Of a stretch of DNA of 64,000 bases, positions 2,716 through 63,095 are shown one piece after another. Location of the stretch: IMG/VR virus record IMGVR_UViG_3300045740_000123, positions 1 through 64,000 of that record. The stretch is one strand, 5' to 3'. The notes below the pieces were generated by a model. The model was not told the origin of the DNA. It saw nothing but the letters and a program-made list of their open reading frames with translations, and made no database searches. The stretch comes from a virus. The position numbers and the translations under genes are program-made. Position 1 is the stretch's first letter. The number at the start of each line of letters is the position of its first letter.

Positions 2716-3177
2716 TTAACCAAAGTAATCACTGTAGTTATAAGGCTTACCTGAATTGAACTGAGGTTTCGTGGGGTAGTTTACACTGCCCCTGGCACCC
2801 TGTGAATCTCCCAGGCTTGGTAGTTCCGTGCCCTTGTAGCTCATGGCGCCTTGTGGGACACGTGTACCAAAGATAGGGGATTGTACGTCAGCAGACTGCT
2901 GGTATTTGCTGGCAAGATTTGCAGCCTTAAGGAATCGTCTTACGCGATTTTGTTGAACAACATTTGCTGTATCTGCTGCTGCAGCTGTATTTTTTTCTTC
3001 TGCATCAAGACGCCGCGTATCAACGTCATAGTTTCTTTCCGGCGTTAGATCAGTTACGTCTCCACCGGAAGAACCCGCATCCAAGCGAGGGTCATAATCA
3101 AGACGACCTTTATAACCAATCTTTGTATCGACGGGTTGATTAGGACGTTCTTTAAGTGGGTCGTAGAATCTTGCCAT
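2716..3177 (-). CDS. hypothetical protein
   Basis: 153-aa ORF. Confidence 0.6.
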   Translation of the reverse strand: MARFYDPLKERPNQPVDTKIGYKGRLDYDPRLDAGSSGGDVTDLTPERNYDVDTRRLDAEEKNTAAAADTANVVQQNRVRRFLKAANLASKYQQSADVQSPIFGTRVPQGAMSYKGTELPSLGDSQGARGSVNYPTKPQFNSGKPYNYSDYFG

Positions 3178-3217
3178 GATAATATTGTAAACGAAGCAAC
3201 TTGCGCCAAGATATACA

Positions 3218-3574
3218 ATGCATAACCAAGCGGACTACTTTGACGGTCTTGGTCAGAGCATTATTGATGAAGTGATCTGCCGTTGTTTGAATCAAGCAAC
3301 GTTTGGAGAACCACTCGATAATGAAGAAAATGATGTACCATTGTACGATCAATATAATCGTGGCTTGGCATTATGCGAGCAAGGGATGGAGCGTCAGGAC
3401 TTGCAGCTAGAGGGGCGACGGCCCGGAATGACGGGTTACATTCCGTCGATGGAGGAAGCAACGGAGCGGTTCCCAGCTTCATCGCCACGACCGAAGACTC
3501 TGATTCTGGACTTGGGCGAACCAACGGAGGAGGAAAAGCTCCTGTCAGCGAAAAGACTTGGTTTGCTCCGGTAG
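3218..3574 (+). CDS. hypothetical protein
   Basis: 118-aa ORF with ATG start. Confidence 0.6.
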   Translation: MHNQADYFDGLGQSIIDEVICRCLNQATFGEPLDNEENDVPLYDQYNRGLALCEQGMERQDLQLEGRRPGMTGYIPSMEEATERFPASSPRPKTLILDLGEPTEEEKLLSAKRLGLLR

Positions 3575-3888
3575 ATCTAACTGATACCGAAGATTTTATT
3601 AGTGATTGCCCAGGGGGTGTTTGCCCTGTTCCCTGGGCTGTCAAAGAAGAGCCCCCTGTCGTCCAAATCGATAACGTCAATCATCCGTCTCATTACACAG
3701 ATGGTGGCATTGAATGCATCGAAGCAATTGAAGCTGCTTTAACCAACGAAGAATTCCGTGGTTATTGCAAAGGCAATTGTCTGAAATATATCTGGCGTGA
3801 AAAACTTAAAGGCGGTACCGAGTCACTGAAAAAAGCGCAGTGGTACTTGGATCGCCTCATTCAACTTGACGAAGCTCAGAAGGGCTGA
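3373..3888 (+). CDS. DUF3310-like protein (start uncertain)
   Basis: DNVNHPSHYT.GGIECIEAI...GYCKGN..KYIWR...KGG.ESL.KA.WYL signature. Confidence 0.85.
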   Translation: MRARDGASGLAARGATARNDGLHSVDGGSNGAVPSFIATTEDSDSGLGRTNGGGKAPVSEKTWFAPVDLTDTEDFISDCPGGVCPVPWAVKEEPPVVQIDNVNHPSHYTDGGIECIEAIEAALTNEEFRGYCKGNCLKYIWREKLKGGTESLKKAQWYLDRLIQLDEAQKG

Positions 3889-4175
3889 AGATCGTCGTCG
3901 TCTTCATCATCATCCATGATGCAGGCGGCGGCTAGCTCCACCAATTCAAGGTCAGTGGGTACATCGAAGGAAATGTCGATGTTCTCACTGGCCAAAATAT
4001 CTTTAATGGCAAACCACTCCATCAGGCGTTGATGGTAAAGGTTTAGAAGAGCTGCATATAACTGCTCCCATGTCATCTCCTGCGCTTGCAGCTCTGCACG
4101 ACGCATGGAGAATTGAAGCTCTAAAGGAAGTTCAAACTCTCTTGGTTCAACAGATCGCTCCATTCCAGATTGCAT
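3876..4175 (-). CDS. hypothetical protein, acidic C-terminus
   Basis: 99-aa ORF. Confidence 0.6.
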   Translation of the reverse strand: MQSGMERSVEPREFELPLELQFSMRRAELQAQEMTWEQLYAALLNLYHQRLMEWFAIKDILASENIDISFDVPTDLELVELAAACIMDDDEDDDDLQPF

Positions 4176-4199
4176 GGCTTCAATAAAACTATTTTAAAG

Positions 4200-4898
4200 C
4201 TAAATGTCGCAGATGCCTTGAAGTTCATCTGCCTCTACGGAGAAGAACTCATCCCATGGGGAGTCGTCAACCCTAAATTCGTTGGCAAATTCAGAGAGCA
4301 CGTAAGGGTTGATCTTCTCTTCCAGCTTACGAATTGCGTTGACCTGCCGCGAGGATGCCTCATAGTTGCGGAAGGCTGCCAGGAGAATTCCAAGGGATGC
4401 TCTGGGTGCAGAATCTAATTCCTGAACGAACAATTGAACCTCCTCTTTGCGTCTGTCAATGAGATTACCCACAACCTTATGGTCTTCATCAAAAACCCAT
4501 TGGCTCATCTCAGTTGTGACACCATGCCAATCTTCTTGTTCAATGCAATCAATCACGGCACTGTACAAGAAGGAATGCCATCCCACTGAATGAGCAAAGG
4601 AAATCAACGCCTGAGACATTGAACCATCAAGTCCCAAGTTAAGTTTGGTCAATTCGTTTTCCAGGACTTGCACTTCGTGGAAAAGGTACTCCAATGCCTT
4701 CTCCTTGGTGCACATTTGACCTGCTTTGACGGGCAAGCCGTCAGGATAATGCTGAGTCCCATACCCAATGGTATAGGGCTCAGCACCTGTCGATGGGTCC
4801 GGATACGCTTTCTCGTTAAACCCCTCGTATTTGCGGATTAAATTAATCGCGCAGCTAAGGTCGGACATGGGAATAACACTATTCCCACAATCATACAC
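4200..4898 (-). CDS. GH24 lysozyme (endolysin) with C-terminal extension
   Basis: LIRKYEGF..AYPD.....YTIGYG, ALISF..SVG, L..RR..E motifs. Confidence 0.85.
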   Translation of the reverse strand: MYDCGNSVIPMSDLSCAINLIRKYEGFNEKAYPDPSTGAEPYTIGYGTQHYPDGLPVKAGQMCTKEKALEYLFHEVQVLENELTKLNLGLDGSMSQALISFAHSVGWHSFLYSAVIDCIEQEDWHGVTTEMSQWVFDEDHKVVGNLIDRRKEEVQLFVQELDSAPRASLGILLAAFRNYEASSRQVNAIRKLEEKINPYVLSEFANEFRVDDSPWDEFFSVEADELQGICDI

Positions 4899-39859: not shown

Positions 39860-39888
39860 GGCCGACTAGCCCAACGGCAGAGGCAAGC
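39860..39888 (+). pseudogene. orphan 5' half of tRNA-Leu
   Basis: GGCCGACTAGCCCAACGGCAGAGGCAAGC duplicates 5' part of the tRNA at 40258. Confidence 0.8.
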
Positions 39889-40275
39889 ATGAAACTCTAT
39901 GGCCCATACACTCGCAAAGATGGCAGACAACATGTCATTCTTTACGAAAATGGCAAACGCAAAACAGTAAGCTATCCCAAGTATTTACTTGAGACAAAGC
40001 TTGGTCGATCCCTTTTGCCTCATGAAACCTGTGATCACATTGATGGCAATCCTTTAAACAATTCTTTAGATAACTTGCAACTGCTATCCAGAGCGGATAA
40101 CATACGCAAGCACGCAGCTCTTTTACCTGCAGAGCTGGGAACTTTCACTTGTCCTATTTGTTTGTGTTCATTTACAAAACGAATGCATAACACTAGGCAC
40201 AATCGAAAGCAAGGAAAACGTGGACCTTATTGTTCACGTTCATGTGCAGGTAAAGCTGGCCGACTAGCCCAATAG
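39889..40275 (+). CDS. HNH homing endonuclease
   Basis: LGRSL..HETCDHIDGNPLNNSLDNLQLLSR..N; CPIC...YCSRSC; stop lies in tRNA D-loop. Confidence 0.88.
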   Translation: MKLYGPYTRKDGRQHVILYENGKRKTVSYPKYLLETKLGRSLLPHETCDHIDGNPLNNSLDNLQLLSRADNIRKHAALLPAELGTFTCPICLCSFTKRMHNTRHNRKQGKRGPYCSRSCAGKAGRLAQ

Positions 40276-40335
40276 GAAGCAGGCAAGCGACTTAAAATCG
40301 CTCAAGTCCCGGTTCGAATCCGGGGTCGGCTACCA
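40258..40335 (+). tRNA. trnL: tRNA-Leu(UAA), short variable loop, encoded CCA
   Basis: GGCCGAC/GTCGGCT acceptor, AGCGA-CTTAAAA-TCGCT anticodon arm, CCCGG-TTCGAAT-CCGGG T arm, ACCA end. Confidence 0.9.
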
Positions 40336-42355: not shown

Positions 42356-42712
42356 ATGAAAGTCGACAAGCCATGGGGTTGGTACAACACACTGACCCCA
42401 GAACAAACCTCATTGTTCCGTGGCTACCTCGTTAAAGAACTACACATCAACAAAGGCCATCGCCTTAGCCTTCAGCGCCATCAACACCGGTGTGAACACT
42501 GGATTGTTGTCAATGGCGAAGGATTGTTTGAGTGTGATGGCCGCACACAAATTGTTAATGAAGGTACTCACTTGTACATTCCAAAGCAATCAGTCCATCG
42601 CCTCACTGCAACAAACCAAGACATTCGCATTGTCGAAGTTCAATGCGGTGAAGTAATCTCTGAAGACGACATCGAACGTTTAGAAGATGATTATGAACGA
42701 TCACAGAACTAG
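42356..42712 (+). CDS. mannose-6-phosphate isomerase type II-like cupin
   Basis: KPWG.Y, RLSLQRH.HR.EHWIVV.G, IVEVQ.G....EDDIERLEDDY. Confidence 0.88.
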   Translation: MKVDKPWGWYNTLTPEQTSLFRGYLVKELHINKGHRLSLQRHQHRCEHWIVVNGEGLFECDGRTQIVNEGTHLYIPKQSVHRLTATNQDIRIVEVQCGEVISEDDIERLEDDYERSQN

Positions 42713-42898
42713 CATGATTCTTCAGTCTATTGTCTGGGGTTTAATCTTTGGAACATTCATTGTACTTTTCATCGCAATGATCTTTGATACGCCAGAAACA
42801 ACTAGAGAGAAATTCAAAGTTGTTGACAACTACAAAGGTTGCGATGTTGTTCAGTACAATGATCCATCACAACGCTATCAGTACTTCTTGCACTGCTC

Positions 42899-43537
42899 AT
42901 GAACGTTGACTTAACTTGGGTAACGCCCAATGCTGAAGAACTCATCGTTAAGATGGCACGGGTCTCAGCACCTAAGAACCAAGACAACATGGAGACAGCT
43001 CCAAAGTTGTTGCGTTACTTGATCAAGCACAAGCACTGGTCGCCATTTGAAATGGCAAACATGTGCGTAGAAATCGAGACGACGCGTGCAATCTCACCAC
43101 AGATTCTTCGTCATCGTTCGTTTAGCTTCCAGGAATTTAGTCAGCGTTATGCAGACACAAATGAACTGGGCTCAGCTGTTATTCCGCATCTACGTAGACA
43201 AGATCAGAAGAACAGGCAAAACAGTATTGATGACTTATCTTCTGATCTTGTTGGTACTTATTATCGACGCATCAGTGAACTGTATGAGAACGCAGAACAT
43301 CTGTATCGCGAGATGGTAAGCAATGGTATTGCCAAGGAATGTGCCCGTTCCATTCTGCCGCTATCGACACAGACCCGTCTCTTCATGAACGGTACACTTA
43401 GGTCTTATATACATTATTTACAAGTGCGAACTGACCCAAGTACTCAGCTTGAGCATCGACAAATTGCCTTGGAAATCAAAAAGATTTTTTGCCAACAGTT
43501 TCCAATTATTGGTGAGGCTGTATTTAGTGATCAATGA
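42899..43537 (+). CDS. thyX: flavin-dependent thymidylate synthase
   Basis: HWSPFEM, QILRHRSFSFQEFSQRY, AKECAR, TQLEHR. Confidence 0.95.
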   Translation: MNVDLTWVTPNAEELIVKMARVSAPKNQDNMETAPKLLRYLIKHKHWSPFEMANMCVEIETTRAISPQILRHRSFSFQEFSQRYADTNELGSAVIPHLRRQDQKNRQNSIDDLSSDLVGTYYRRISELYENAEHLYREMVSNGIAKECARSILPLSTQTRLFMNGTLRSYIHYLQVRTDPSTQLEHRQIALEIKKIFCQQFPIIGEAVFSDQ

Positions 43538-43995
43538 TTAAGCATTGTCGTTATTGTGAGCAGGATAAACCTTCTGCTCACTTTTCTCCACACCCACATA
43601 CAACTGATCGTTTAAGTAACAAATGCAAAGACTGTGTCAGTGTTTACAACAAACTTCGACATTCAAAAAGAACCAGAAAAGAACTGGATTTAATCAATGC
43701 AAAACGAAGAGCAAACAGAAACACATGGAAAACCGATAGGAAAAAACATTTCAAAAGAGCATATGGAATTACTGTTGAAGACTATGAGGTAATGCTGGTT
43801 AACCAAAATAGTGTTTGCAAGATTTGCAATAAACCATGCAAGTCAGGTAAAAGTTTAGCTGTTGATCATTGCCATGAAACCGGAAAGGTCCGAGGTTTAC
43901 TGTGTGCAAAATGCAACACAAATCTTGGACGTATCGAAGCATACCTTCGTGATCCTAAACCATGGGATGATTATCTTAAATCCTACGAACCTTAA
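43534..43995 (+). CDS. endonuclease VII-type homing endonuclease
   Basis: YGIT..DY..M...Q...CKIC....LAVDHCHETGKVRGLLC..CN..LG. Confidence 0.9.
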   Translation: MIKHCRYCEQDKPSAHFSPHPHTTDRLSNKCKDCVSVYNKLRHSKRTRKELDLINAKRRANRNTWKTDRKKHFKRAYGITVEDYEVMLVNQNSVCKICNKPCKSGKSLAVDHCHETGKVRGLLCAKCNTNLGRIEAYLRDPKPWDDYLKSYEP

Positions 43996-44014
43996 CCATT
44001 ACCACTAATCACCC

Positions 44015-44230
44015 ATGCCCGTAACAACAATCAAACGCTGTCAATATGAATCCGAGTGGTGGTGGACAGTTGAAGACTGCGTTGCCGAGTACGACGTAGA
44101 GCCTGGCTCTGGCCTCACCATCAAGTATCACGACGACAATGATCAAGTGGGTGAGATAAAGCTAAGCCTTAGCAAGGAAGACGCTCTTCTCATTCGTGAT
44201 GCAATCAATCAGCTTTATCCGCCCTCTTAG
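44015..44230 (+). CDS. small hypothetical protein (cassette)
   Basis: 71 aa, flanked by conserved junctions. Confidence 0.65.
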   Translation: MPVTTIKRCQYESEWWWTVEDCVAEYDVEPGSGLTIKYHDDNDQVGEIKLSLSKEDALLIRDAINQLYPPS

Positions 44231-44249
44231 CCGCTTCTACTAATCACCT

Positions 44250-44486
44250 ATGACACAACAACATCCCATCACCCCGTCTAACCTTTCACCACAAGCCTGG
44301 GTTGTATTAGAAGCAGCCTATCAAGCACCTGACGGTAGGAACGCCACTCGCCAATGCGTTGCCGCCGCCCTGCGAGCTGCTGCGAATGAATTGGGCTATC
44401 GCATCATCTACGACGACGGTGACACCGAGTACAGGATTGATGTCACTGATCTGCTAGCCATTGCCGCCGAGCTTGAAGCCCAGTAG
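44250..44486 (+). CDS. MTQQHPITP-family small protein, copy 2
   Basis: Same N-terminus as copy 1; C-terminus shared with 46212 ORF. Confidence 0.7.
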   Translation: MTQQHPITPSNLSPQAWVVLEAAYQAPDGRNATRQCVAAALRAAANELGYRIIYDDGDTEYRIDVTDLLAIAAELEAQ

Positions 44487-44500
44487 TCACCTTCACTTCT

Positions 44501-44734
44501 ATGTCTGACAAGAAATCAACCAAGAAAATCGAGCGTTACAAGCTCGAAGCAGCATTCGTCTCCCTGGCGGACTACGACGTAACCACCAAAGGCGACGACT
44601 TCATGGAAGTGTCCATGTGGCACAACGGTGAGGGCTTCGATGTCATCGTCAACAGCAATGGCGAACAACGCTTTTGCCTGACATGGGGGCAGTACAAGGC
44701 GCTCAAGACGCTCGTAAAAGAGCTGGACGGCTAA
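44501..44734 (+). CDS. small hypothetical protein (cassette)
   Basis: 77 aa, DFMEVSMWHNGEGFDV. Confidence 0.65.
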   Translation: MSDKKSTKKIERYKLEAAFVSLADYDVTTKGDDFMEVSMWHNGEGFDVIVNSNGEQRFCLTWGQYKALKTLVKELDG

Positions 44735-44760
44735 GCCCAGTAGTCACCTTCCCTAAATGA

Positions 44761-44889
44761 ATCCACTACCTTGATCTCCGCTGCTCCAATGGAACTCAAC
44801 TCGAGCACCAACAAATTGCCAGAGCAATCAGAAAAATCTTCTGTGAACAATTCCCAATCATTGGAGAAGCTGTGTTCTCAGCAGATTAA
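44761..44889 (+). pseudogene. thyX: displaced second copy of thyX 3' end
   Basis: Translates IHYLDLRCSNGTQLEHQQIARAIRKIFCEQFPIIGEAVFSAD*, paralleling thyX C-terminus. Confidence 0.9.
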
Positions 44890-45144
44890 TGACTTGATTG
44901 AAAAGTACGAGGAGCCCGAGCAAGCCCGTCAGTTTTTAATGAAGGCTGGCGTCATTGATGAAGACGGTAATCTAATGCCTCCATGCCAAAAGACCCCAGA
45001 GAAAACTCAGGGGCCATTGGATGAATGGAGATCAGAAGGTCGCGGCGCTTTGTTTTTTTAATTCAGTAACAGCATGCTTGGACTCCACATCCTTGCGCGT
45101 CTGCTTCTTCCGTTTGTCTACCAGGTAGACGATCAGTGCTTTGT

Positions 45145-45297
45145 TCATTTGATTTGACCTCCGGTGACAAAGGGAAAGTAGCAAACGTTACGGTAGGTCA
45201 GACAGAGCCAGGGACGGTGGGCTAAGTTCCACCAGGCTTTGTCTGCCTTGGCCTGATCCTCTTGGTTGTATTTGCAACCACGATACGTTAACGTCAT
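45145..45297 (-). CDS. DUF4278-like small protein
   Basis: MTLTYRGCKY...LTYRNVCY duplicated motif. Confidence 0.75.
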   Translation of the reverse strand: MTLTYRGCKYNQEDQAKADKAWWNLAHRPWLCLTYRNVCYFPFVTGGQIK

Positions 45298-61233: not shown

Positions 61234-61270
61234 TCGGAGATGCAGGATTCGAACCTGCGACCCTCTGCTC
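61234..61270 (-). pseudogene. 3' half of interrupted tRNA (Pro-type acceptor)
   Basis: GAGCAGA-GGGTC-GCAGG-TTCGAAT-CCTGC-ATCTCCG-A. Confidence 0.88.
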
Positions 61271-61662
61271 TATTTAGCTTTTTGTTTCTTCACCTCTCTT
61301 TGCTTTTTACCCGCCTGGCTTTTTGCTGTTTTGCACAAATCACACCGACATCCATATTTGGAATACGACCAAACTGTCCCATGTGTTTGTCGTTTTTCGT
61401 TGGTCCAGCCTTTACCATAACTTCCTTCTTCTAAAGTCTTAATGTGATGACAGGGTTTGCAAAGTAACTGACACTTTTTAAGTTCTGTTTCTAATGTATC
61501 CCAATGGGTTGACCACTTGCAGCTAATATCAAAACTTTTAGAAGTGTGATCTATGTGGTCAATATGCAACAAATCAGAACAGCCGCATTTAATGCAAACA
61601 CCCCCAAGAAAATCAATCATCTCTTGGCGACGTTTTTTGTAATCAGAAATTTTTGAAACCAT
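61270..61662 (-). CDS. HNH endonuclease inside tRNA
   Basis: LGGVCIKCG....LHIDHID...ELKKCQLLCKPCH..KT; HGT...Y..YGCRC..C; ATG 61662. Confidence 0.88.
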   Translation of the reverse strand: MVSKISDYKKRRQEMIDFLGGVCIKCGCSDLLHIDHIDHTSKSFDISCKWSTHWDTLETELKKCQLLCKPCHHIKTLEEGSYGKGWTNEKRQTHGTVWSYSKYGCRCDLCKTAKSQAGKKQREVKKQKAK

Positions 61663-61667
61663 AAAAA

Positions 61668-61738
61668 TCGGGGTGGAAGGTACTGCCCCTTCTCCTCCGC
61701 CTCCCAAAGACGGCGTGATACTTTTCTACTACACCCCG
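61668..61738 (-). tRNA. trnP: atypical tRNA-Pro(UGG)
   Basis: CGGGGTG/CACCCCG acceptor plus A, CCGTC-TTTGGGA-GGCGG anticodon arm, GAAGG-GGCAGTA-CCTTC non-canonical T arm, weak D arm. Confidence 0.75.
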
Positions 61739-61912: not shown

Positions 61913-62461
61913 TTATACAGATTCATTGGGTGTTTTCCAGAAATAATCATCGCATTCTCCAAGCCGACCCCACTTCTCTTCCCGATAATCAATATCTTTA
62001 GTTAAAAAATCAATAGCGTTTTTCAATATTTGGATATTGTCTTTGGCGTGGCCAAGCATTGTATTGCATCTATGGCATAAAAGCCCTCTAACCTTGCCTG
62101 TTTCATGGCAATGATCTACACAAAATGTTTTCTTTGGAGCGGGACTGTTTGTTTTGCATATGGCGCAACAACCTTTTTGAATTTCCAGAATTTGTTTGTA
62201 TCTACCCCTAGGTAAACCATAGGAACGCAAACGATCAAGATCATTAGCGTGTTCTAAATTGTTTTGGCGCCATCGATTGTAATTTTCTTGATGGCGCTTT
62301 TTGTTTTTTCTTGACCATTCCCGGCTGTACTCGTTTGTACAAACACGGCACCAAGTATTTAAACCATCTTTGTTTTTCTTTGCTTTGTTAAAAGCATCCT
62401 TGGATTTAATCTCTAGGCATTTGGTGCATTTTTTCGTTGGGAGTTTGCCAGAAATAGTCAT
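61913..62461 (-). CDS. endonuclease VII-type homing endonuclease fused to displaced C-terminus of upstream gene
   Basis: CTKC..CRVC; YGL....Y...L..Q.GCCAIC....VDHCHETGKVRGLLC.RCN..LG; ends KWGRLGECDDYFWKTPNESV. Confidence 0.9.
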   Translation of the reverse strand: MTISGKLPTKKCTKCLEIKSKDAFNKAKKNKDGLNTWCRVCTNEYSREWSRKNKKRHQENYNRWRQNNLEHANDLDRLRSYGLPRGRYKQILEIQKGCCAICKTNSPAPKKTFCVDHCHETGKVRGLLCHRCNTMLGHAKDNIQILKNAIDFLTKDIDYREEKWGRLGECDDYFWKTPNESV

Positions 62462-63095
62462 CGCACTCGCCTAGGCGCCCCCATTTTAACGCTTTTTCAG
62501 AGTCAAAGTATCGAGTCGATACCTTAAAGTCTGGTGTCTTTAGATCGTGGTTGGTGAGCGATGGATCAACCATTCGACAACGATTGTTGGGATAAGCGCC
62601 AATTTGACCGTTGTCCAAAGCCACAATGTTGTGGGACTTATGCTCGTCAGGAAATTCCGCAAAGTAAAAATCCGGTTCGTTCCTATGAGGATGATAATTG
62701 TCAACCGTAAATAGGTATGTGCCTTTCATTACACCTGCACTACGTGTCATAACTTGAAACTCCATATTGAAGATCAAGTTCTTTTCGACAACCGTAAGAC
62801 CATGATCAAATCCATTCCAGAACTGCAGGTCAGTTAGCTCTAGGTCAGGAGTGGGTGCTTGAGGTTTGTCCGGATAATCTGGATCCCATGCCAGGAATGC
62901 ACTGATGGGAAGCTTGTCGTAAAGGGCTCCGTACTCAGTAAGATAAGTCTCAAACTGAAGTGCTCTACCAGTTAAAGATTTACAACTTACCCAATAACCA
63001 GGCGTATATTCACCATGACCGTCTCTTAGGTCACGTAAGTATTCACGCCTTACCCAAACCTTGACGGGCGGGACATTGGCCACAAGAGTTGTCAC
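62406..63095 (-). CDS. conserved hypothetical phage protein
   Basis: 229 aa; LVANVPP..VWVRREYL.D...GHGE, EHKSHN..ALDNGQ..AYPNNR. Confidence 0.7.
   Translation of the reverse strand: MTTLVANVPPVKVWVRREYLRDLRDGHGEYTPGYWVSCKSLTGRALQFETYLTEYGALYDKLPISAFLAWDPDYPDKPQAPTPDLELTDLQFWNGFDHGLTVVEKNLIFNMEFQVMTRSAGVMKGTYLFTVDNYHPHRNEPDFYFAEFPDEHKSHNIVALDNGQIGAYPNNRCRMVDPSLTNHDLKTPDFKVSTRYFDSEKALKWGRLGECDDYFWQTPNEKMHQMPRD

Follow-up and report, generated by a model that had tools for sequence, protein, structure and literature searches.

Replacement of the thyX 3' end in an uncultured virus, with the native end stranded downstream, very probably by a free-standing DHHRN/Endo VII-motif homing endonuclease gene

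In the uncultured virus record IMGVR_UViG_3300045740_000123, the gene thyX ends in a foreign 3' tract, and its native end lies stranded beyond a gene for an Endo VII-motif nuclease and three small open reading frames (ORFs). The stretch analysed here (the window) is the first 64 kb of this 85,144-bp record, which has direct terminal repeats and is rated complete. The thyX sequence is native to about position 43396 and foreign from there up to the stop codon, grouping in this part with the thyX ends of S-EIVl (an Arctic freshwater Synechococcus phage, KJ410740, numbered L001) and of the metagenome contig L227. A free-standing homing endonuclease gene (HEG) with the DHHRN/Endo VII motif very probably invaded the thyX coding sequence and brought the replacement 3' end with it. 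An original prediction, made from the sequence alone, had described the replaced end and a stranded copy beyond the nuclease gene and the small ORFs, and all of these features are found where it had placed them. The thyX region is syntenic with the IMG/VR contigs L002-L005, among which L002 is the closest nuclease-free relative, and more distantly with S-EIVl. The main elements of the locus are the following.

42899..43537, plus strand: hybrid thyX, full length, 212 codons plus stop, with a Pfam Thy1 match and an alignment to PDB 2CFA
42899..43396, plus strand: native 5' part of thyX, recognised by its identity to L002; a mosaic of related-phage alleles
43397..43537, plus strand: foreign thyX 3' tract of at least 43 codons (RS-Y-IHYLQVRTDPS...SDQ and stop), its left joint within 43392-43405
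43534..43995, plus strand: free-standing HEG, 153 aa, with an N-terminal CxxC...CxxC zinc ribbon and a C-terminal Endo VII (DHHRN) motif
44757..44889, plus strand: stranded native thyX 3' end; the former Trp codon is now TGA at 44758-44760, and 42 codons plus stop follow at 44761-44889
44771..45061, plus strand: ORF D, the gene 3' of thyX in relatives, overlapping the stranded fragment in the +1 frame

The hybrid thyX is a single open frame of 212 codons in which the inserted C-terminal piece is in frame with the native part upstream. It matches Pfam Thy1 over profile positions 5-190 of 191 (E 2.7e-47), residues 11-208 align with the ThyX of PBCV-1 (PDB 2CFA, E 1e-57), and the C-terminus reads ...IHYLQVRTDPSTQLEHRQIALEIKKIFCQQFPIIGEAVFSDQ; the gene is presumably a working one. 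Its 5' part is identical to nuclease-free L002 at 423/498 nt (85%) and 152/166 aa (92%) but patchy, with sliding identities of 85-98% to L002, L219 or L221. At about 43396-43405, the sliding identity to L002 falls from 85-98% to 45-70%. Over the same stretch the identity to S-EIVl climbs from 25-60% to 73-84% and stays there through the stop codon and the first four codons of the next ORF. Across the whole working end, 74/120 nt (62%) are identical to L002, against 75% to S-EIVl.

Codon composition changes at the same place, as the original prediction had noted from the AT-rich codons of the working end and the C-ending codons of the stranded copy. At third codon positions, the GC content of the working 3' end (0.26) and of the nuclease gene (0.28) is lower than that of the thyX 5' part (0.47) and of the fragment (0.43), and C-ending codons make up 0.09 of the working end and 0.38 of the fragment. 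Native thyX alleles read TCN TGG ATM CAY TAY at the joint, whereas all nuclease-linked working alleles read TCT TAY ATA CAY TAT (Ser-Tyr-Ile-His-Tyr). The foreign tract thus also exchanges Trp for Tyr in the codon preceding IHY. The replacement proposed earlier stands, but not its length of 42 residues: it starts 4-12 nt further upstream (43397-43405) and covers at least 43 codons, the Trp-to-Tyr change included.

A maximum-likelihood tree of 34 thyX ends (111 nt) separates the two copies. One clade (support 100/99) takes in all ten working ends that are linked to a nuclease, together with S-EIVl, L227 and L205. All eleven fragments fall outside this clade, among nuclease-free thyX ends of the L002, L003 and L005 type; the fragment of the window pairs with that of L218 (95/82), and the next nearest row is L002.

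The stranded copy is the native thyX end. Positions 44761-44889 translate to IHYLDLRCSNGTQLEHQQIARAIRKIFCEQFPIIGEAVFSAD followed by a stop, with TGA immediately upstream and no start codon. The fragment matches Pfam Thy1 positions 159-191 (E 4.8e-5; 23.7 bits, slightly below the curated cut-off of 24.8 bits), and a search within the genome aligns it with ThyX residues 166-210 (E 9.6e-15). It is identical to L002 at 108/120 nt (90%) and 37/40 aa. Downstream follows ORF D (72% aa identity to L002 6521-6739 and 71% to L003 6548-6745), just as the same ORF follows the intact thyX of L002 and L003. The two thyX ends of the window share 78/126 nt and 29/42 aa, and these values of 62% and 69%, taken alone, would be compatible with old paralogues, that is, with a tandem duplication in place followed by divergence, or with the remnant of a second thyX, with no foreign DNA involved. 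This explanation is extremely unlikely, as the working end falls with S-EIVl, L227 and L205 in the tree rather than beside its own fragment, L002 is 90% identical to the fragment but 62% to the working end, the break in composition is sharp, and the fragment keeps its syntenic place before ORF D. A comparison of both ends with cyanophage ThyX had been suggested in the original prediction, which named an independent second thyX as the case that would speak against it; the fragment instead starts at the recombination joint and leads into the post-thyX ORF of the relatives.

The frame of the fragment is open in 11/11 contigs, and its ratio of nonsynonymous to synonymous divergence (dN/dS) is 0.03-0.29. 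Selection acting on the fragment was considered as a cause, but renewal by homing, the overlapping ORF D or read-through from the nuclease can each explain both features. The fragment may also carry the true start of ORF D. An ATG at the position of the ORF D start within thyX is present in L002, L003, L005, the window, L218, L219 and L224-L226, and absent from L220-L223. The C-terminal tail of ORF D (...WRSEGRGALFF and stop) is kept even where the middle of the protein differs (window 44771-45061; L002 6521-6760; L003 6536-6754).

The nuclease is intact, retains every catalytic residue and is subject to purifying selection. The start codon of its ORF and the stop codon of thyX overlap in the sequence ATGA. 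The C-terminal half (residues 71-137 of 153) matches PF02945 (Endonuclease_7) with E 1.2e-21, the protein matches phrog_2633 endonuclease VII with E 4.7e-32, and the N-terminal part contains a CxxC...CxxC arrangement that weakly matches a Lar-like zinc-ribbon PHROG. In an alignment with T4 Endo VII and Hpy99I, the four Cys and the D, H, H, R and N residues are all present: C95-x2-C98, D111, H112, H114, R120, C124-x2-C127 and N128 correspond to C23/C26, D40, H41, H43, R54, C58/C61 and N62 of T4 Endo VII. The DHHRN family, founded on F-CphI of a cyanophage, is defined by CX2-4C, DH(D)H, a conserved Arg, CX2C and a distal Asn; in its endonuclease clade the motif occupies the C-terminal half behind a separate N-terminal region, while in the resolvase clade it is N-terminal (PMC6083498). 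Both the catalytic motif and its C-terminal placement are found in the window nuclease. Among ten DNA homologues its dN/dS is 0.12-0.25, which indicates that the protein is being kept functional. Homologues among metagenome proteins are 63-94% identical.

The Pfam and PHROG matches to endonuclease VII might suggest that this ORF is the Holliday-junction resolvase of the phage itself, similar to T4 gp49, and stands beside thyX by chance. That is very unlikely, since the motif lies behind the zinc ribbon in the layout of the endonuclease clade, the gene is missing from L002-L005 and from S-EIVl and so is not conserved as a core gene would be, and the genome contains three Endo VII-type ORFs. The nuclease is borne neither by an intron nor by an intein: no Rfam intron family was detected in 42800-45200, even at E up to 1, and the thyX stop precedes the nuclease ORF.

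Expression of the nuclease may be limited by a predicted structure at its start, which the terminator scan placed within the first 50 nt of the ORF.

43556..43581, plus strand: hairpin of 10 bp, then TTTTCT

The hairpin is kept at about -15 kcal/mol in the nine homologues L218-L226, and L227, whose nuclease is 68% identical, has a different 12-bp hairpin in the same place. Together with its U-tract it may be a candidate terminator or attenuator behind thyX.

Relatives with the same architecture were obtained by a scan of metagenome contigs. The order thyX, nuclease, fragment is present in at least 11 contigs from several projects, and at least nine of them (L218, L219, L221-L226 and L229) lack the small ORFs; relatives with the nuclease but without cargo, which the original prediction had proposed to look for, therefore exist. 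The HEGs are 85-93% identical to that of the window at the nucleotide level, the thyX 5' parts 66-84% and the fragments 64-89%. Synonymous divergence (dS) is 0.19-0.6 for the HEG and reaches about 1 for the fragment. The HEG is less diverged than its flanks, a sign of horizontal spread. In 11/11 contigs the right joint falls exactly between the Ser and Trp codons (Ser|Trp); on the left, the boundary and the thyX 5' part are mosaic. The pattern is consistent with a single illegitimate join at the outset, after which the unit was transferred repeatedly by homology, with co-conversion of variable extent. The microhomology seen on the right-hand side is very short: ATCTT is common to the nuclease end and L003-type thyX, and ATGrAT stands at the joint of cargo and fragment.

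In cargo-free relatives the nuclease ORF runs on directly into ORF D, and the downstream part of the unit has been incorporated into several nuclease ORFs. In the homologues P0002-P0007 (212-249 aa), the ORF continues into the +1 frame of the thyX fragment and ORF D; in P0011 the fusion is in the ThyX frame, and P0012 retains only the last few codons of the fragment.

Empty sites were sought in public runs, which were compared as Logan contigs rather than raw reads in four runs (X1, X3, X5 and X8), with joints taken at 85% likeness. The stretch is present in metagenomes from freshwater, sediment and drinking water, while the one RNA run contained only 5% of the sampled words. Logan contigs connect 43392-43404 directly to 44757-44767. 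In X3, X5 and X8, which belong to three studies, the joint 43404>44761 with GTGG restores ...AGG TCG TGG ATC CAC..., the sequence of an intact HEG-less thyX. The net difference between this allele and the window is 1352 bp, in agreement with the insertion of about 1.35 kb that had been predicted. The same three runs also contain nuclease pieces identical to the window. Empty and filled sites thus co-occur in the same runs, and the presence of the HEG is sporadic: L218-L229 have it, L002-L005 and S-EIVl do not.

The record is that of an uncultured virus, and a metagenome assembly might have fused two thyX alleles into a chimera. This is extremely unlikely: the same architecture recurs in at least 11 contigs from several projects, and an independently built Logan contig from X1 spans 43039-44802 with zero differences, though X1 may be the source sample.

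The nuclease and its adjoining thyX end may have come from relatives of S-EIVl. Contig L227 has an S-EIVl-like thyX (67% aa identity), the nuclease (68% aa identity) and then a homologue of the post-thyX ORF of S-EIVl (47% aa identity, E 3e-24). No end duplication is found at its thyX locus; the nuclease sits cleanly between genes. This is the usual layout of a free-standing intergenic nuclease, and it is a plausible source of the nuclease together with the thyX end. Among cultured phages, S-EIVl alone is related to the locus at the DNA level, through its thyX, and no record in the cultured-phage collection has the window's nuclease above about 38% aa identity. The post-thyX ORF of S-EIVl (L001 4627-4640) has the same ATGA overlap and MIKH start as the nuclease (43534-43545), the remainder being unrelated. 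The shared start may mark an old insertion point of the nuclease or its loss. The nearest IMG/VR nuclease outside the record of the window is 48% identical in aa sequence (L082/L083). In L083, a GC-rich phage, it lies about 300 bp behind thyX, with one 91-aa ORF between them, and just before terS and terL (3028-4378). No thyX duplicate was detected in L082/L083. An association of this nuclease lineage with thyX may extend over long distances.

Between the nuclease and the stranded fragment lies a second, smaller insertion with its own elements.

43978..44756, plus strand: secondary cassette insertion, giving a new 5-codon nuclease tail and stop (KSYEP and stop), linker motifs and three small ORFs
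44015..44230, plus strand: cargo ORF A, 71 aa; copies with 90-96% aa identity in about 20 viral contigs, in other contexts
44250..44486, plus strand: cargo ORF B, 78 aa; start MTQQHPITP, end ...LLAIAAELEAQ
44501..44734, plus strand: cargo ORF C, 77 aa; copies with 88-96% aa identity in about 18 viral contigs, in other contexts

In cargo-free relatives the match to the window breaks off after 43977 and resumes at 44757/8, with two or three nucleotides in between. Cassettes A and C are found at 93-98% nucleotide identity in dozens of other viral contigs, never with the nuclease of the window and always flanked by identical stop-linker-start motifs. The start and end motifs of ORF B are common to paralogues in the window and its relatives; its other matches are short and at linker level. 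Contig L220 shares the nuclease tail and the right-hand linker with the window but carries a single, different small ORF, and L228 has other ORFs. When the tree is rooted on L227, the three nucleases with cargo group together (85/93) within the cargo-free ones.

The original prediction left open whether the insertion carried the cargo or attracted it afterwards. The later arrival is most likely, because nine relatives are free of cargo and the cargo-bearing nucleases are nested among cargo-free ones. The cargo of about 780 bp would have entered at the joint between HEG and fragment by linker-mediated cassette exchange, and its content would have been exchanged since. Loss of the cargo by deletion in the cargo-free relatives is a less likely alternative, though not an outright implausible one. 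ORFs A and C match no Pfam or PHROG family, and in the protein atlas ORF A matches only viral hypothetical proteins; the atlas, Pfam and PHROGs gave no function for A, B or C. A Tudor_5 Pfam match of ORF B (21.8 bits against a cut-off of 31 bits) was set aside as probably due to chance. A promoter scan returned fewer sites than shuffled sequence.

A course of events that accommodates these observations can be proposed. In S-EIVl-like phages the HEG may at first have sat between genes downstream of thyX, the ordinary position that it has in L227, and from there would have cut HEG-less thyX near codons 168-171 (Ser-Trp-Ile-His-Tyr). On transfer into the present phage group, which has a different post-thyX gene, homology on the right-hand side would have been lacking. 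The end of the HEG would then have been joined illegitimately to the cut thyX end, duplicating the last ~43 codons. From this point the unit could home into any susceptible thyX, its left homology arm being the 5' part of thyX and its right arm the stranded fragment. The hybrid already in residence would itself be immune, its working copy reading TCT TAT ATA (Ser-Tyr-Ile) with many further changes and the fragment representing a half site only. The nuclease would probably be made at a low level, through coupling to thyX translation and read-through of the hairpin. The cargo, being situated between the two homology arms, would be copied along in any homing event.

Several points weigh against this reconstruction. 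The target site and the immunity are deduced from the positions of the joints, and cleavage and homing are likewise deduced. The tree of ends is built on 111 nt only, and the Logan joints, accepted at 85% likeness, may stem from related phages and not from one population. Between the window and L222, the working 3' ends are 75-85% identical at the nucleotide level (dS ~1.3), while dS of the HEG is ~0.23; the end is thus more diverged than the HEG between some HEG-bearing contigs, so the working end and the nuclease have not always moved as one block. As for the cargo, support for the cargo-bearing group is moderate (85/93; present in 82% of bootstrap trees), and the root is one long branch, L227.

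Gene ends duplicated beside nuclease genes were also found at other loci. In contig L205 (IMGVR_UViG_3300035670_000219), a relative of 61 kb, thyX shows 95-98% identity to L003 and L221 until ~1900, followed by a foreign AT-rich end and a different, HNH-type nuclease (2025-2756; phrog_1035, E 1.4e-15) on an ATGA overlap. BLASTP detects no similarity between this nuclease and that of the window. A shorter stranded fragment (2603-2710) is 81% identical to the L003 end, and the HNH ORF runs in frame into the +1 frame of this L003-like fragment. An additional Endo VII-type ORF (960-1481) lies upstream, overlapping a strongly diverged thyX 5' end (region 757-2756).

Two further cases are in the window itself. 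At 39861-40335, an HNH ORF (~39889-40275) lies within tRNA-Leu(UAA): the first ~29 nt of the tRNA (GGCCGACTAGCCCAA..GGCAAGC) stand directly 5' of the HNH start, and a second, slightly different copy forms the 5' end of an intact tRNA-Leu (40258-40335) that overlaps the HNH stop. This case mirrors thyX, with the 5' end replaced rather than the 3' end. The other involves a second Endo VII-motif ORF.

61913..62461, minus strand: second Endo VII-motif ORF, PF02945 E 2.7e-25

This ORF ends KWGRLGECDDYFWKTPNE (...KWGRLGECDDYFWKTPNESV and stop), repeating, fused in frame, the 3' end of its upstream neighbour, a 229-aa ORF (62406-63095, minus strand) with the C-terminus ...KWGRLGECDDYFWQTPNEKMHQMPRD and stop; the nucleotide identity is ~84% over ~55 nt. 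An HNH-like ORF (61270-61707) follows the second Endo VII ORF.

Other variation was seen around thyX in this group. In L195 (4510-6132, minus strand), ThyX contains an in-frame HNH-domain intein in the RHRSFxFQE|...|SQRY motif, with C...HN/S boundaries. Mobile elements of several kinds are found in the thyX of these phages. The region upstream of thyX is also variable: L205 lacks the cupin gene, and a contig of run X3 (depth 50) joins 42692 to 42899 and so lacks the 71-aa membrane ORF (42693-42898) between the cupin gene and thyX. In L012 (4588-5661), a 91-aa membrane ORF lies behind thyX, and after it the last ~66 thyX codons recur in near-identical form, ending 15 nt short of the end of the contig. 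This may be an end duplication without a nuclease, or an assembly effect.

These data bear on whether the duplication could go back to a single event, an illegitimate recombination or unequal crossover involving a related phage, with the Endo VII gene as a passenger. The activity of the nuclease is deduced only, thyX is highly mosaic even away from the nuclease, and in L012 a thyX 3' duplication surrounds a small non-nuclease ORF. Yet the second copy in L012, at the contig end, may come from assembly. Moreover, in 11 contigs the nuclease lies right at the boundary of the duplication, it has diverged less than its flanks and is under purifying selection, three further end duplications are linked to nucleases, and presence and absence map exactly onto the edges of the unit. 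A passenger role for the nuclease is therefore improbable, and invasion by the HEG remains the preferred explanation.

A broader proposal can be advanced tentatively, with prospects a little short of balanced. In this freshwater cyanophage group, DHHRN and HNH nucleases may routinely invade protein-coding and tRNA genes by way of a substitute end. The native end would serve as a right arm renewed in each recipient and would in some lineages hold the start of the next gene, while the joint would act as a landing pad for cassettes and the nuclease as a gene drive for the cargo.

The locus offers a natural series: the ancestral-looking intergenic form in L227, at least nine cargo-free invaded forms, three forms with differing cargo and, from the same samples, empty sites. 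With this series, the choice of target, co-conversion and the hitch-hiking of cargo become directly testable. There are also practical consequences. ThyX genes are used as a cyanophage marker and regarded as auxiliary metabolic genes. The history of the thyX 3' end can differ from that of the rest of the gene, by which phylogenies and gene callers may be misled; several database proteins of 212-249 aa are in fact nuclease-fragment read-throughs.

HEGs are thought to enter essential coding sequences mainly inside introns or inteins. Replacement of a gene end, with the original left stranded, is a third route into coding genes, so far described for fungal mitochondria. The literature search, whose coverage is incomplete and which is no proof of absence, returned no phage report of an end-replacing nuclease insertion, and keyword look-ups in two recent phage-nuclease surveys gave no phage example. 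The finding is new for phages and for the DHHRN family, while the mechanism is ordinary in principle and known from fungal mitochondria.

Among phage systems, the case of the HNH nuclease gene mobE inside nrdA of Aeromonas phage Aeh1 is reportedly one in which ribonucleotide reductase genes exist "in pieces" (Friedrich et al. 2007). As in that case, a free-standing phage nuclease here lies within an essential gene of nucleotide metabolism, without intron or intein, and the Aeh1 enzyme is reported to stay functional. The Aeh1 nrdA product is reportedly split into two polypeptides that reassemble, whereas thyX in the window is kept whole by its substitute end.

F-CphI of cyanophage S-PM2 reportedly has psbA as its neighbour and cleaves where a group I intron inserts; no gene end is known to be replaced or duplicated at that locus. 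Unlike F-CphI with its group I intron association, the window nuclease has no intron at its locus. The two are alike in being free-standing cyanophage genes beside their targets, with a C-terminal motif (CX2C, DHxH, R, CX2C, N) and a size of ~150 aa (PMC6083498); this likeness is one of motif, layout and size.

The T4-type nucleases SegB, SegF and MobE are similar in that a free-standing nuclease gene adjoins a conserved gene. In their intronless homing, a genome that lacks the nuclease suffers a double-strand break and thereby acquires a copy of the nuclease gene, along with co-converted flanking sequence of variable length (PMC2330249, PMC2790892, PMC2988022). Those genes are intergenic with homology on both sides, so that flanking sequence is replaced; in the window, homology on the right-hand side is instead supplied by the retained copy of the target's 3' end.

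The closest parallels are the hybrids formed by mobile ORFs (mORFs) in fungal mitochondria: atp6 of Allomyces macrogynus; atp6, atp9, cox2 and nad3 of Glomus sp.; atp9 of Rhizopus; and cox2 of Mortierella (PMC3630166). In these, as in the window, an endonuclease ORF with an in-frame foreign C-terminal piece is inserted in a conserved gene and the native C-terminus is left downstream (PMC3630166). An in-frame insert, a retained native end that is closer to relatives and a foreign origin of the insert are all found at the thyX locus, and the identities to relatives are comparable: 91-98% for the native piece in mORF hybrids and 90% here, and 64-81% for the inserted piece against 62% here (PMC3630166). 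The differences are that the host is a phage and not an organelle, and that the nuclease is of the Endo VII-motif/DHHRN type, not LAGLIDADG or GIY-YIG. In several mORF cases the endonuclease is fused in phase, whereas the nuclease here is a separate ORF coupled by ATGA. The thyX locus also differs in the cassette array inserted later at the joint of nuclease and fragment, and in the population-level evidence of presence and absence.

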